Origin: Escherichia coli
GTDB lineage: Bacteria > Pseudomonadota > Gammaproteobacteria > Enterobacterales > Enterobacteriaceae
Direction: 5' to 3' (one strand)
DNA: 64,000 nucleotides
NCBI RefSeq assembly: GCF_046105845.1
Contig: NZ_CP151004.1
Part shown: positions 29,206 through 50,898 of the stretch, in pieces
Position numbering within the stretch: position 1 is the first letter of the stretch
Layout: the number at the start of each line of letters is the position of its first letter
The notes under the pieces: generated by a model
What the model was told of the DNA's origin: nothing
Databases searched by the model: none
What the model saw: only the letters and a program-made list of their open reading frames with translations
Translations under genes and position numbers: made by a program

Positions 29206-29284
29206 GCCACTGCTTTTCTTTGATGTCCCCATTTTGTGGAGCCCATCAACCCCGCCATTTCGGTTCAAGGTTGGTGGGTTTTTT
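29206..29284 (+). ncRNA. rybB: RybB small regulatory RNA (Hfq-dependent, represses omp mRNAs)
   Basis: Sequence gccactgcttttctttgatgtcccc...ggttggtgggtttttt matches RybB as I recall it, with terminal hairpin plus U-tract; lies in the ybjL-rcdA intergenic region as expected. Confidence 0.85.
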
Positions 29285-29303
29285 GTTATCTAAAACTTAT
29301 CTA

Positions 29304-46313: not shown

Positions 46314-47852
46314 TTATTGCAAATCCGCGTCTTCAAAGCTGAAGCCGGTGTCTGGCATGATCCAAAAACCGGTCAGGTTTTTACTGTGTGCCGACACCAG
46401 TTTTTCTACCACTAGCGGGATCCACGGCGACTCTTGCCAGATGATATCCTGCGCCGCCTTATATAAACGGGTCTTTTCTGCCGGATCATTAGTTTTCAGT
46501 GCCTGAGCCAGGAAGTCATCCACCTGTTTATTGCTGTAAAACGCGGTATTAAACAGCGTCGGTGGCCAGTTCTGCGATGCAAACAGCGGCGATAGAGCCC
46601 AGTCAGCTTCGCCGGTTGAAGCCGACCAGCCAGTGTAGAACATCCGCACGCCGCTCTCTTTTTGCCCTTTACCTTCAACTTCTGCCGCCCGCTGTCCGGC
46701 ATCCATCGCAGTCACCTGGGCTTTAATCCCGACCTGCGCTAACTGCTGCTGGGTAAATTGCAGCACTTTCTGCGCGGTGCTGTGGTTATGTGACGACCAC
46801 AGCGTGGTACTGAAACCGTTGGGATATCCCGCCTCTTTCAGTAATTCGCGCGCTTTCACTGGATCGTAAGGCCACGGTTTATAACTTTGCGCGTAGGCGA
46901 TACTCGGCGGTACCACACCAGTAGCTGGCTTTGCATAGCCCGCGAAGGCTACTTTCACCAGCGCCGGGCGGTTAATGGCGTAATTCAGCGCCTCACGGAC
47001 CTTCGGGTTATCGAACGGCTTTTGCGTCACGTTCATACTGATATAACGCTGCATAATTGACGGACTGGCCATCAACTCGATATTTTTGTTTTTCTCCAGC
47101 AGTGCGGCCTGCTCGTAGGGAATGGGGAAAGCAAACTGCGCTTCACCGGTTTGCAGCATTGCCGCGCGGGTGTTGTTATCCGCCACCGGACGCCAGGTTA
47201 TGCTGTCCAGTTTGGGCAATCCTGGCTGCCAGTAAGCCGCGAATTTTTTCACCTTCACAAAATCGGTCTGATTCCAGGTATCCAGTTCATACGGCCCGGT
47301 TCCCACTGGATGAAAACCAATCTCCTTGCCATATTTTTCCAGCGCTGCCGGCGAAATCATCGCGGTCGCCGGATGGGCAAGAATATTAATAAACGCTGAG
47401 AACGGCTGTTTGAGGGTAATCTTTACCGTTGTTGGATCGATCGCTTCCGTTTTGGCAATATTCTTATACAGGTTGTAGCGTTTAAGATGATTCGCCGGAT
47501 CGCTGGCCCGGTCCAGATTCGCTTTTACCGCCGCTGCGTTGAAGTCGGTGCCATCCTGGAATTTAATTCCTTCCCGCAATTTCACGGTGTAAGTAAGGCC
47601 GTCATCGGAAACGGTATAACTCTCCGCCAGCACGTTTTTCAGTTTCATCTCTTTATCGAGACCGAACAGCCCCTGGTAAAACGATTTCGCTACGGCCTGA
47701 GATAACGTGTCATTCGCGTCATAGGGATCGAGCGTGGTGAAGTTCGATCCTACCGCCACCACCACATCTTTGGCAGCGAATGCACAAGATGCCATCAACG
47801 CTGTCGCAATGCCCAGCGCCACTAACCCACTACGGTGTACAGCTCTTGCCAT
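46314..47852 (-). CDS. gsiB: Glutathione-binding periplasmic protein
   Basis: Start trimmed to [21 protein letters not shown] signal peptide (ORF track adds 89 codons). Confidence 0.9.
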
Positions 47853-47871
47853 TTTATTCTCCGCCTGAATG

Positions 47872-49743
47872 TTATCTACGCATGAATGCGTATTCTGATT
47901 GTGGTTGTGCGACGTAATGCCCCGGCCCGACGCATTGCAACGAGACAGCTGCAACCTCTTCGCCACGCAGATGAATATTGCTGGGAAGATCGTCCGACAG
48001 CAGTACACGCTGCGGTCGTTGTCGGGACGGTTCCGCGACCGGAACCGCCGCCAGTAATTTACGCGTATAAGGATGCTGCGGGTTTTCGAAGACCGCGCGC
48101 CGTGGACCAATTTCAACAATTTGTCCGAGATACATCACCGCCACACGATGACTAATCCGCTCTACCACGGCCATATCGTGGGAGATAAACAGATACGCAA
48201 TGCCGAAATCACGCTGGAGATCGAGCAACAAGTTGATAATCTGCCCGCGAATAGAAACATCCAGCGCCGAGACGGCTTCATCGGCAATGATCACTTTTGG
48301 ATTCAATGCCAACGCGCGAGCAATGCAGATGCGCTGGCGCTGACCGCCGGAAAACTCATGCGGGTAACGCCAGGCATGTTCAGGTAACAGGCCCACGCGC
48401 TCCAGCAACCACGCAACGCGTGCAGCCGCTTCTTTACCTGGCAATAAACCGTGTACGCGCAGCGGTTCGATAATCGAATCACCGATGGTCTGACGTGGGT
48501 CCAGCGAAGCGTAAGGGTCCTGAAAAATAAACTGAATATCGCGGCGCAATGCCTGAAGTTTACCGGGTGACAAGGTATCGATTCGCTGACCGTTAAAGAT
48601 AATTTCGCCGCCCTGCGATTCGACCAGGCGCAGCAACGCCCGCCCGGTAGTGGATTTACCGCTGCCAGACTCGCCCACCAGCGATAGCGTTTCGCCAGGC
48701 CAGAGATCAAAACTGACTTTCTCAACGGCATGCACTTCCCGCGTTACGCGATTCAACAAACCGCTGCGCAAAGGGAAACGGGTGACCAGATTACGCACCC
48801 GTAAAACAGGTTCGCCATCCACCACCGTTTTCTGCTCGATGGGTGGTTCCTGTTTCGCTGGATGTTCAAGCGATATCAATGGGAAACGTCGGGGATAATC
48901 TAACCCTTTCATCGCACCAAGTTGCGGAACAGCAGCTAACAGCGCACGGGTGTAAGGATGTTGCGGTGCATGAAAAATCTGTTCGACGCTACCCGTTTCC
49001 ACCGCCTCGCCCTGATACATCACCAGTACCCGATCGGCAATCTCTGCCACCACGCCCATATCGTGAGTGATAAAGATAACGCCCATCGACATCTCTTTTT
49101 GCAATACTTTGATTAATTGCAGGATCTGCGCCTGAATAGTGACATCCAGCGCGGTGGTTGGCTCATCGGCAATCAGCACCGCCGGGCGGCATGACAGTGC
49201 CATCGCAATCATCACTCGCTGGCGCATCCCGCCAGAGAGTTGATGCGGATAACGTGAAAGAATGGTTTGTGCCTCCGGAATGCGTACCTGATCCAGCATC
49301 CGCTTCGCCTCGACCATTGCTTCTTCACGACTGGCGTTTTGATGCAGACGAATAGATTCAGCAATCTGTTCACCCACAGTAAATACCGGGTTCAGCGATG
49401 TCATCGGCTCCTGAAATATCATCGCCATATCCGCACCGCGCACATGGCGCATTTGTGCAGCGCTCTGCTCGCTAAGTTCAATCACTTCGCGACTGCGCCG
49501 CCGCAACAGCATTTGATCGCACTGCACTAAACCGCCCGCCTGTTCCAACAGGCGCATCAATGCCAGCGCAGTCACTGACTTACCGGAGCCGGATTCGCCA
49601 ACAATTGCCAGCGTCTCACCACGTTGCAGGCTAAAAGAGAGATTGCGGACCGCAGCTATTTTCTGCTGGTCCTGCATAAAGGCAATATTCAGATTTTCAA
49701 CCGCCAGCACATCACCGGCATCAAGTTCATCACTGTGTGGCAA
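47872..49743 (-). CDS. gsiA: Glutathione ABC transporter ATP-binding protein (tandem ABC domains)
   Basis: Two Walker A motifs (GESGSGKS twice) and two LSGG signatures; annotated length about 623 aa implies a non-ATG start near 49743, so the start is approximate. Confidence 0.85.
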
Positions 49744-50695
49744 CGGTGTCCCCTTTTTCACGGTAGATACCGGTGGTTGGCGTATCGCCTGCGTAGCCCC
49801 AGGCGCGATACATTCCTTCGGTGTTAAACGGTAGCGCGATATTACCTTCATGGTCGATAGCGATTAAGCCACCGCTACCGCCAAGCGCAGGGAGTTTTTC
49901 CATTACTACCCGCTCGCAGGCTTCCGCGAGACTTAATCCGCCGTAATCCATTAACGCGGCGATGTCATATGCCGCCAGCGCGCGGATGAAGACTTCGCCC
50001 GTGCCGGTACATGAAACCGCCACACTGGCGTTATTGGCGTAGCATCCGGCCCCCACTAAGGGACTATCGCCAACTCGTCCGGGTAATTTATTGGTCATTC
50101 CGCCTGTGGACGTGGCTGCCGCCAGATTGCCGTCTAAATCCAACGCCACGGCCCCCACGGTGCCCATTTTCTGTTTTTCATCCAGTGGCGCACCGCTATG
50201 GTCGAGGACCATTTCCCCTTCCTCGCGCGCTGCCAGTAGTTGTTCATAACGCAAAGGCGTGGAGAAAATCTCCGGCGAGACGCGCTCCATGCCATGAGCA
50301 AACGCAAAATTTTCTGCCCCTTCGCCAATCATCATCACATGCGGGCTCTGCTCCATCACCAGCCGGGCGGCAAGAACCGGATTACGCAGATGACTAACGC
50401 CCGCCACCGCACCGGCTTTCAGGGTGTTACCATCCATCACACAGGCGTCCAGTTCATGGGTTTCATCACGCGTAAAGACAGCGCCAATTCCGGCGTTAAA
50501 CAGTGGACACTCTTCCAGCAGACGCACCGCTTCCGTCACCACATCCAGCGCACTTTCGCCCGCTTCCAGCATTTTCTGCCCGGTTTCAACAATGGCAGAC
50601 AGCGCCTCGATGTAGCGTAATTCCTGTTGCAGACTCATCTGCGCGCGGCTAATTGCACCTGCGCCGCCATGAATTGCAATGACTGCTTTGCCCAT
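49730..50695 (-). CDS. iaaA: Isoaspartyl dipeptidase / L-asparaginase family (Ntn hydrolase)
   Basis: 321 aa; GTVGAVA autoproteolytic threonine region; first gene of iaaA-gsiABCD. Confidence 0.9.
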
Positions 50696-50898
50696 AGTAT
50701 TCGTCCATTAAGGGTGGCTCGCCACTTTTGCTATAAATATCAGAATTTTTATGAATTACTCATTCAATTTTTGAATATAGAAAGATGGATATGGCATGTA
50801 AAGGCAGGAGCCAGCGCTACGCCCGAGGTGGCATACAGTCTGTGGCGTTTTTCTGACATAATAGGCAAATTCGATTTTGCCTCCGCAGGAGTGTTTTC

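Follow-up and report, generated by a model that had tools for sequence, protein, structure and literature searches.

Translation of gsiA in this Escherichia coli genome starts at a TTG codon (49743..49741 on the (-) strand), giving a GsiA protein of 623 residues. We are highly confident in the joint reading in which this start has a Shine-Dalgarno sequence of its own and in which its short overlap with iaaA is a derived feature, produced when a TAA stop codon became AAA. The TTG start is already known, being present in RefSeq and UniProt and backed by ribosome profiling; to the profiling study of Nakahigashi et al. (2016; PMC4909307), the present analysis adds comparative evidence and the nonconservation of an upstream in-frame ATG.

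The iaaA-gsiA junction

The window, which is the whole stretch of 64,000 nt that was analyzed, carries the E. coli iaaA-gsiABCD operon on the (-) strand and is nearest to strain XJ6.1 (99.9% over 701 nt). RefSeq gene context in two E. coli genomes (L001 and L002) is fsa, moeB, moeA / iaaA, gsiA, gsiB, in agreement with membership of the pair in this operon, and gsiC and gsiD start at their K-12 offsets in the window. The protein is 98.7% identical to that of K-12 gsiA (yliA, b0829), the ATP-binding subunit of the glutathione ABC importer, and differs from it by few substitutions, such as Asp11 in the window for Asn11 in K-12; the K-12 gene has the same TTG start, 623-residue length, and 14-nt overlap with iaaA. 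Glutathione import activity is reported for K-12 from the genetic work of Suzuki et al. (2005). The features at the junction are as follows.

47872..49743, (-) strand: gsiA coding sequence, 623 aa plus stop, TTG start (RefSeq, NCBIfam NF007613, and TetRP, PMC4909307)
49741..49743, (-) strand: gsiA TTG initiation codon, with homologous start codons in about 20 Enterobacteriaceae and a TetRP peak
49730..50695, (-) strand: iaaA coding sequence, beta-aspartyl peptidase, 321 aa plus stop (ORF, NF007589, and PDB EcAIII chains)
49730..49743, (-) strand: iaaA/gsiA overlap, 14 nt, read from the sequence and in agreement with RefSeq CDS coordinates
49750..49755, (-) strand: gsiA Shine-Dalgarno sequence AAGGGG, 6 nt before the TTG and within iaaA codons 314-316, by 16S pairing
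49744..49851, (-) strand: upstream extension of the gsiA frame, 108 nt, noncoding in that frame and coding for IaaA residues 282-317 only

The first-pass annotation had treated the gsiA start as ambiguous, setting a 659-aa ORF from an ATG at 49849-49851 beside a GsiA of about 623 aa from a non-ATG codon, suggested to be TTG, near 49743. Its coordinates were correct to the base: the longest gsiA-frame ORF runs from 49851 to 47872 on the (-) strand with its ATG at 49851..49849, and the in-frame TTG is codon 37 of that ORF, leaving exactly 623 residues (659 minus 36). It also rightly observed that either start overlaps the 3' end of iaaA, whose TGA stop was read at 49732..49730; the overlap is 14 nt from the TTG and 122 nt from the ATG. 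The ambiguity itself is not real, as RefSeq has the TTG and TetRP maps it (PMC4909307), and the three approaches that the annotation had proposed for settling the start, namely, ortholog alignment, ribosome binding site (RBS) scoring, and ribosome-profiling start data, all favored the TTG.

RefSeq CDS features start gsiA at this TTG, with the 14-nt overlap, in strains XJ6.1, J53, MG1655, and others, and 5,425 of 5,426 complete E. coli genomes share the 91-nt junction sequence at 95% identity or more. The NCBIfam equivalog model for GsiA (NF007613) scores 1378.5 bits against a cutoff of 1077 and aligns over its full length (1-623/623) to ORF residues 37-659, although neither this model nor the RefSeq calls are independent of the K-12 annotation. 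The upstream partner is equally well defined: IaaA scores 714 bits against NF007589 (cutoff, 567; aligned 1-321/321) and matches crystallized E. coli EcAIII, for which PDB entries 2zak, 1k2x, 1jn9, and 7qq8 span residues 2-321, with the beta subunit at 179-321.

Evidence for initiation at TTG

Tetracycline ribosome profiling (TetRP) in K-12 places the yliA/gsiA start at TTG 866743 in U00096.2, or 867520 in U00096.3 (PMC4909307, Table S2, row 8, and Table S3), with a TetRP depth of 46/140/71 at this codon versus 0/0/3 at the GTG annotated in 2006. This shifted the start upstream by 33 nt from its 2006 position and matches GenBank record U00096.3 of 2014 (Nakahigashi et al. 2016, PMC4909307). 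In the cell-free INRI-seq experiment, no peak was seen at the start in isolated gsiA initiation regions (-30..+120) in any of five replicates, and Ribo-RET in vivo likewise had no gsiA start peak (PMC9825163, Table S2). Of the annotated starts, about 30% are missed by INRI-seq and no more than about 18% are picked up by Ribo-RET (PMC9825163), and the zero INRI-seq signal is uninformative as to which gsiA codon is used. Among the rows listed, gsiA is absent from the other INRI-seq tables (PMC9825163). No GsiA N-terminal peptide was found, the N'-peptide column of the TetRP paper being blank for gsiA (PMC4909307); TRAINSPOTTER (PMC13245402) makes no mention of gsiA, and a literature search on gsiA/yliA and iaaA/ybiK returned nothing bearing on the start site.

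Pairing with the 3' end of 16S rRNA also singles out the TTG, a site that exceeds chance expectation. Its duplex energy of -7.8 kcal/mol ranks 4th among 174 NTG triplets in iaaA plus gsiA, compared with -1.5 kcal/mol and rank 122 for the ATG at 49851 (ATG-36); the other candidates, GTG-6, GTG+11, and ATG+22, reach -3.0, -2.3, and +0.4 kcal/mol. The TTG is the sole candidate start with a good Shine-Dalgarno sequence, and AAGGGG or AAGGAG is kept at the same place in all aligned genera. Initiation would be directed by a gsiA-specific AAGGGG (49755..49750) embedded in the last codons of iaaA, and this sequence is probably its main driver.

The comparison across genera covered 80 species among the matches listed, with no Salmonella or Klebsiella loci in the sample. 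About 20 enterobacterial species among those matches have TTG, GTG, or ATG at the position homologous to the gsiA TTG, and the gsiA frame meets a stop 3-12 codons upstream of the start in eleven loci (L009, L012, L013, L019-L023, and L025-L027). Synonymous changes, among them a switch of the serine codon from AGT to TCT, leave GsiA residues 2-8 (PHSDELD) intact. Conservation of these residues at the protein level argues for a start at this position rather than at the GTG 11 codons downstream.

Origin of the 14-nt overlap

The overlap depends on a single iaaA codon.

49754..49756, (-) strand: iaaA codon 314, AAA, which is TAA in seven other genera (alignment and junction table)

Codon 314 is a TAA stop in Leclercia, Lelliottia, Enterobacter, Phytobacter, Superficieibacter, Pseudocitrobacter, and Siccibacter and is AAA in Escherichia and Citrobacter, where IaaA is longer by eight residues (KGDTVATQ). 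In most related genera, iaaA ends at a TAA and the gsiA start follows 10-11 nt later. Stop-codon loss in an upstream gene is a general route to short gene overlaps, and this pair fits it, with read-through ending at the next in-frame stop, within gsiA, and a polarity given by parsimony only. The ancestral TAA would have adjoined the Shine-Dalgarno sequence at a distance of 10-11 nt from the gsiA start. Its change to AAA would have let translation of IaaA continue across the RBS and four codons into gsiA before reaching the next TGA in frame. By parsimony, the 14-nt overlap is probably the derived state of Escherichia and Citrobacter, a polarity drawn from a sample that lacks Salmonella and Klebsiella, the closest outgroups. 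Salmonella IaaA is presumably 313 aa long (321 minus 8). Within E. coli, a change that is silent in the gsiA frame has shortened the IaaA tail of variant 23CRST011 by one codon again.

Coupling of gsiA to iaaA translation

A possible, though unlikely, alternative keeps the TTG start but makes gsiA mainly dependent on iaaA translation, either by reinitiation 11 nt upstream of the TGA or by unmasking of the RBS. The arrangement has features that would suit such dependence. Stop and start lie 14 nt apart on a presumed single transcript, and a simple consensus scan of the (-) strand at the junction turned up neither promoter- nor terminator-like sites. TTG, moreover, is weak as a start codon, and 29 of 31 Enterobacterales-like loci have the iaaA stop no more than 20 nt from the gsiA start. 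A possible promoter for the operon, a pattern match only, lies upstream of iaaA.

50774..50802, (-) strand: sigma-70-like promoter candidate (TTTACA, 17 nt, TATATT), 10 of 12 consensus positions

Against obligatory dependence, the strong Shine-Dalgarno sequence and the start codon are conserved whether the iaaA stop stands at +9..+13, -1, -4, or -14 relative to the start. The first-pass annotation had taken the overlap to imply coupling, an inference that is not supported when the RBS and start are kept whatever the stop position. The spacing is also unfavorable: coupling drops beyond about 4-8 nt of overlap (PMC12548453, PMC10666635), weakens as the overlap grows until none is left at -25 nt (PMC12548453), and is efficient between -8 and +10 nt, a range treated as predictive for reinitiation (PMC10666635), with an optimum at -4..+3 (PMC12548453). 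At -14 nt, the iaaA-gsiA spacing falls outside the efficient range for reinitiation.

Like the overlapping pairs studied by Huber et al. (2019, 2023; PMC6728339, PMC10666635) and reviewed by Brown and Wade (2025; PMC12548453), iaaA and gsiA are co-directional, and the gsiA start and Shine-Dalgarno sequence lie inside the upstream gene. The common coupled classes in those papers are -4, -1, and -8 nt, in contrast to -14 nt here, and the arrangement in the relatives corresponds to the class at +10/11 nt with the Shine-Dalgarno sequence in the spacer, for which the authors deem independent initiation likely (PMC10666635).

A 10-bp stem, CACCGGUAUC/GAUGCCGGUG, can enclose both the Shine-Dalgarno sequence and the TTG and could in principle make access to the RBS conditional on upstream ribosomes. 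The stem is marginal, however (z = -1.9), and its pairing is disrupted in E. albertii, Citrobacter, and some E. coli. Opening the gsiA initiation region costs 9.2 kcal/mol, an ordinary value (neighbor genes, 5-15; pseudo-sites, 14.7 +/- 4.1) that does not change when the upstream RNA is held open. A model in which the stem masks the RBS was rejected on the basis of this ordinary, unchanged opening energy and of the lack of conservation of the stem. The silence of the isolated region in INRI-seq (PMC9825163) compared with the TetRP peak on native mRNA (PMC4909307) would also fit dependence on iaaA, but the negative is unspecific given the share of annotated starts that fail in that assay.

We keep initiation driven mainly by the gsiA Shine-Dalgarno sequence as the preferred reading, to which ribosomes ending iaaA 11 nt downstream of the start may contribute a measure of termination-reinitiation or local coupling; coupling in this sense is plausible. 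It is distinctly unlikely, in our estimate, that the single TAA-to-AAA change put iaaA-terminating ribosomes on the gsiA start and left GsiA synthesis dependent on, or throttled by, IaaA translation. If true, such dependence could explain why the gsiA region is silent in vitro yet initiates on native mRNA in vivo.

Other candidate start codons

Two in-frame codons downstream of the TTG have a claim as well, one of them from an earlier annotation.

49708..49710, (-) strand: GTG (Val12), the gsiA/yliA start of the 2006 K-12 annotation (612 aa), since abandoned

We consider it very improbable that this GTG at 49710, or the ATG at 49677 (Met23), is the true start. GTG+11 is found in most species among the matches listed, Burkholderiales included, and similarity of GsiA to its distant homologues sets in around residue 12, both of which would be expected of a start near this position. 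Conservation of the codon needs no start function, because it encodes a conserved valine of the first beta-strand. The near absence of TetRP signal at the GTG, the weak Shine-Dalgarno energies of both codons, and the protein-level conservation of residues 2-8 all stand against a downstream start, and ATG+22 is confined to Escherichia among the matches listed and, judging from the alignment, would remove the first strand of the ABC domain.

Initiation at ATG 49851, producing a 659-aa GsiA or an extra long isoform with 122 nt of dual-coding overlap with iaaA, is extremely improbable and was already largely refuted. The frame is open from 49863 on the (-) strand, and the ATG with an open frame of 40 codons is also present in K-12, one divergent Escherichia, and three Citrobacter species. 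The codon lies beyond the reach of the profiling data sets, as TetRP was searched within 60 nt of the old start (PMC4909307) and the INRI-seq construct has just 30 nt upstream of the gsiA start. The ATG has no Shine-Dalgarno sequence, E. albertii has ACC in its place, and the upstream frame is interrupted by stops in at least 10 genera. Stop-free runs of at least 40 codons account for 41% of codons when iaaA and gsiA are read in their alternative sense frames, and because such runs are common, the open stretch upstream of the TTG is not above chance.

Substitution patterns lead to the same conclusion. Of 35 variable sites in the 108-nt extension, 28 fall at third codon positions of iaaA, which are second positions of the extension frame, and amino acid identity over the region is 93.6% in the iaaA frame versus 61% in the extension frame. 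There is no coding constraint on the extension in the gsiA frame, and the alignment did not show the conservation over the whole 659-aa frame that the first-pass annotation had named as refuting its reading. Its 36 residues are likewise without counterpart in the family profile or in solved homologues. GsiA has a pair of tandem ABC ATPase domains of the Opp/Dpp type, with two stretches matching fused OppD/DppD-type chains (Rv1281c, M. tuberculosis DppD), as well as separate DppD/DppF and OppD/OppF chains; in Rv1281c and DppD, the ABC domain corresponds to ORF residues 44-49 onward and begins only 4-5 residues into their own chains. A search of the PDB for a solved GsiA from which the N terminus could be read returned homologues only. 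The 659-aa ORF most likely reflects a chance absence of stops in the gsiA frame over the 3' end of iaaA and would not be translated as part of GsiA. A 122-nt overlap from this ATG would not give any termination-reinitiation coupling at all.

Implications

The finding is ordinary and matters little beyond annotation hygiene. Longest-ORF tracks overextend genes whose 5' ends sit within an upstream gene, and in this window they append 36 spurious residues to gsiA and 89 to gsiB. The junction is mildly instructive in that one RBS and start codon serve gsiA with the iaaA stop placed before the start, at it, or 14 nt past it, and the series of stop positions across genera is a natural set for testing how spacing affects coupling.

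Results

Translation of gsiA, the gene for the ATP-binding subunit of the glutathione importer, begins at a TTG from which the gene overlaps the 3' end of iaaA by 14 nt, as read from both the sequence and RefSeq, and this overlapping start is a feature already known. The first-pass annotation considered the start ambiguous between a 659-aa ORF and a protein of about 623 aa. That ambiguity is an artefact produced by listing longest ORFs, the annotation having been settled since 2014. Every coordinate proposed for the iaaA stop, the ATG, and the Leu codon near 49743 was exact when the minus strand was read again, and the favoured interpretation of that annotation (TTG start, 623 aa, overlap with iaaA) proved correct.

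Reading frames at the iaaA-gsiA junction
50695 to 49730, minus strand: iaaA, beta-aspartyl peptidase, 321 aa by ORF reading, stop at 49732..49730
49863 to 47872, minus strand: stop-free frame of gsiA, opening at 49863, with ATG at 49851..49849 and the gsiA stop at 47872; mechanical ORF of 659 aa
49743..49741, minus strand: TTG, codon 37 of the 659-aa ORF; initiation here gives exactly 623 aa

A start at the TTG shares 14 nt with iaaA and one at the ATG shares 122 nt, a difference of 108 nt (36 codons) that makes up the extension. Stop-free runs of 40 codons hold 41% of codons in the alternative sense frames of iaaA and gsiA, so a 659-aa ORF is what chance would produce. The mechanical ORF of gsiB is over-extended likewise (window 46314-48119, minus strand; 601 aa from TTG 48119 versus 512 aa from the RefSeq ATG at 47852). 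The iaaA stop also sits in a TGATG motif, whose third-frame ATG (49730..49728) opens a 13-codon ORF (window 49689-49730, minus strand) that lacks a suitably spaced Shine-Dalgarno sequence and so could be reached only through reinitiation; it is probably a chance feature.

At the level of sequence, NCBIfam equivalog models confirm both genes. NF007589 (IaaA) aligned over 1-321 of 321, while NF007613 (GsiA, 1378 bits) aligned from 1 to 623 with ORF residues 37-659, placing the 36-residue extension outside the family profile. Of 5426 complete E. coli genomes, 5425 matched a 701-nt query around the junction (best, strain XJ6.1, 99.9%), and in every one of these the 91-nt junction was at least 95% identical. 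RefSeq starts gsiA at the equivalent of 49743, with the 14-nt overlap, in XJ6.1, J53, MG1655, and two more strains. In the same genome collection the junction was absent from one complete genome, and five plasmid-labelled records carry it. In one 'ExPEC' strain from mussels (locus L003, 3358-5452) gsiA is broken up, leaving a 510-aa CDS plus a pseudogene fragment, so the glutathione importer ATPase is probably inactivated there. Elsewhere in the window, the small RNA RybB was the only Rfam family matched (29209-29287, plus strand; full length, 104 bits; gathering score, 40), and a sigma-70-like candidate promoter (50774-50802, minus strand; TTTACA, 17 nt, TATATT; 10 of 12 consensus positions) precedes the iaaA start by about 80 nt, within the divergent iaaA-moeA intergenic region.

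Ribosome-binding signals were scored as the pairing energy between the 3' end of 16S rRNA and the 17 nt preceding each candidate in frame, and the TTG scored best.

Shine-Dalgarno pairing of in-frame gsiA start candidates
49743, minus strand: TTG, -7.8 kcal/mol
49851, minus strand: ATG, -1.5 kcal/mol
49761, minus strand: GTG, -3.0 kcal/mol
49710, minus strand: GTG, -2.3 kcal/mol
49677, minus strand: ATG, +0.4 kcal/mol

Pairing at the TTG is via AAGGGG with a 6-nt spacer and ranks 4th among the 174 NTG triplets of iaaA and gsiA. Published profiling agrees: mapping of initiating K-12 ribosomes with tetracycline (TetRP; Nakahigashi et al. 2016, PMC4909307) gave for yliA (gsiA) a new initiation site, TTG at 866743 of U00096.2 (Table S2, row 8). 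This site lies 33 nt before the start annotated in 2006, and its depths in three samples were 46/140/71, versus 0/0/3 at that earlier start. Table S3 equates the TTG site with the 2014 re-annotation (867520 in U00096.3). The earlier annotation thus began gsiA at the GTG of Val12 (612 aa, window 49710), and experiment supports the TTG as its correction.

A GsiA scan of one genome per species yielded at least 80 loci (Enterobacterales, Burkholderiales, and a few Alphaproteobacteria). Among the matches listed, about 20 Enterobacteriaceae have a start codon at the position of the E. coli TTG: TTG in Escherichia, Citrobacter, Superficieibacter, and Pseudocitrobacter; GTG in Lelliottia, Enterobacter, Phytobacter, Kosakonia, Siccibacter, and Pluralibacter gergoviae; and ATG in Leclercia, Pluralibacter sp., and Cedecea. 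This start codon always follows AAGGGG, AAGGAG, or a motif resembling them (-5.5 to -11.3 kcal/mol). The following PHSDELD is preserved through synonymous changes, including a Ser AGT to TCT switch in Pseudocitrobacter, so GsiA residues 2-8 are translated and the conserved GTG at Val12 is not the start.

Many of these Enterobacteriaceae close the frame 3-12 codons upstream of the start (loci L009, L012, L013, L019-L023, and L025-L027), and E. albertii has ACC in place of the upstream ATG. The first-pass annotation had named conservation across the extension as the deciding comparison; in Escherichia and Citrobacter, to which it was limited and where the frame is open throughout, mean amino-acid identity was 61% in the extension frame versus 93.6% in the iaaA frame, and 28 of 35 variable sites were third positions of iaaA codons and hence second positions in the extension frame, an outcome that counts against a 659-aa protein. 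In the solved homologues Rv1281c, DppD, and OppD, the first ABC domain starts at the equivalent of ORF residues 44-49, just 4-5 residues after each chain begins. It is comparative evidence, then, and not direct profiling that excludes ATG 49851, the TetRP search having extended no further than 60 nt from the old start.

Discussion

The first-pass annotation took the overlap to imply translational coupling. Such coupling is unproven; a weak TTG start codon close to the iaaA stop, on what a consensus scan suggests is one transcript, would suit it. The isolated initiation region was also silent in vitro, whereas native mRNA initiates in vivo by TetRP: Table S2 of PMC9825163 gives the gsiA start no INRI-seq peak in five replicates and none by Ribo-RET. 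The cell-free constructs included only 30 nt upstream, and the failure rate for annotated starts is about 30% in INRI-seq and about 82% in Ribo-RET. Against strong or obligatory coupling, the strong gsiA ribosome-binding site is conserved wherever iaaA stops, and its opening energy (9.2 kcal/mol) is ordinary beside neighbouring genes (5-15) and pseudo-sites (14.7 +/- 4.1) and unchanged with upstream RNA held open. A predicted stem enclosing the site is marginal and not conserved, being weakened in K-12 and broken in E. albertii and Citrobacter (junction alignment A1).

49705-49775, minus strand: predicted 10-bp stem CACCGGUAUC/GAUGCCGGUG, bracketing the gsiA Shine-Dalgarno and TTG, z = -1.9

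In a published series coupling was best at -4 to +3 nt and absent at -25 nt, and growing overlap weakened it faster than growing spacing (PMC12548453); the predictive range for reinitiation is taken to be -8 to +10 nt (PMC10666635). Because of the strong conserved site, ordinary opening energy, unconserved stem, and these spacing ranges, we regard gsiA initiation as driven mainly by its own Shine-Dalgarno, with partial coupling possible.

Of the 80 species listed, about 65 have iaaA directly before gsiA, and the linkage recurs in Burkholderiales (Achromobacter, Bordetella, Paraburkholderia, Variovorax) and Methylobacterium, so the pairing of isoaspartyl peptidase with peptide/glutathione importer is much older than the Enterobacteriaceae. 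Stop-start spacing is +30 to +110 nt in Burkholderiales and -1 (TGATG or TAATG type), -4, -8, or -11 nt in other Enterobacterales. In alignment A1, iaaA ends in TAA (...IYRE-TAA) in Leclercia, Lelliottia, Enterobacter MGH24, Phytobacter, Superficieibacter, Pseudocitrobacter, and Siccibacter, where the stop directly adjoins the Shine-Dalgarno (TAAGGAG or TAAGGGGG) and precedes the start of gsiA by 9-11 nt. The homologous codon in Escherichia and Citrobacter is AAA (window 49756..49754), and iaaA continues across the Shine-Dalgarno, the spacer, and codons 1-4 of gsiA before reaching a TGA. By parsimony, the 14-nt overlap would be the derived state, in which loss of the iaaA stop (TAA to AAA) would have added KGDTVATQ to IaaA.

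E. coli 23CRST011 (locus L084, 248-258, equivalent to window 49733-49743) carries CAC to CAT, creating a TAG in the iaaA frame that leaves IaaA at 320 aa and the overlap at 11 nt rather than 14. This change is synonymous in gsiA (His3). Selection on the shared bases evidently follows gsiA more than the IaaA tail.
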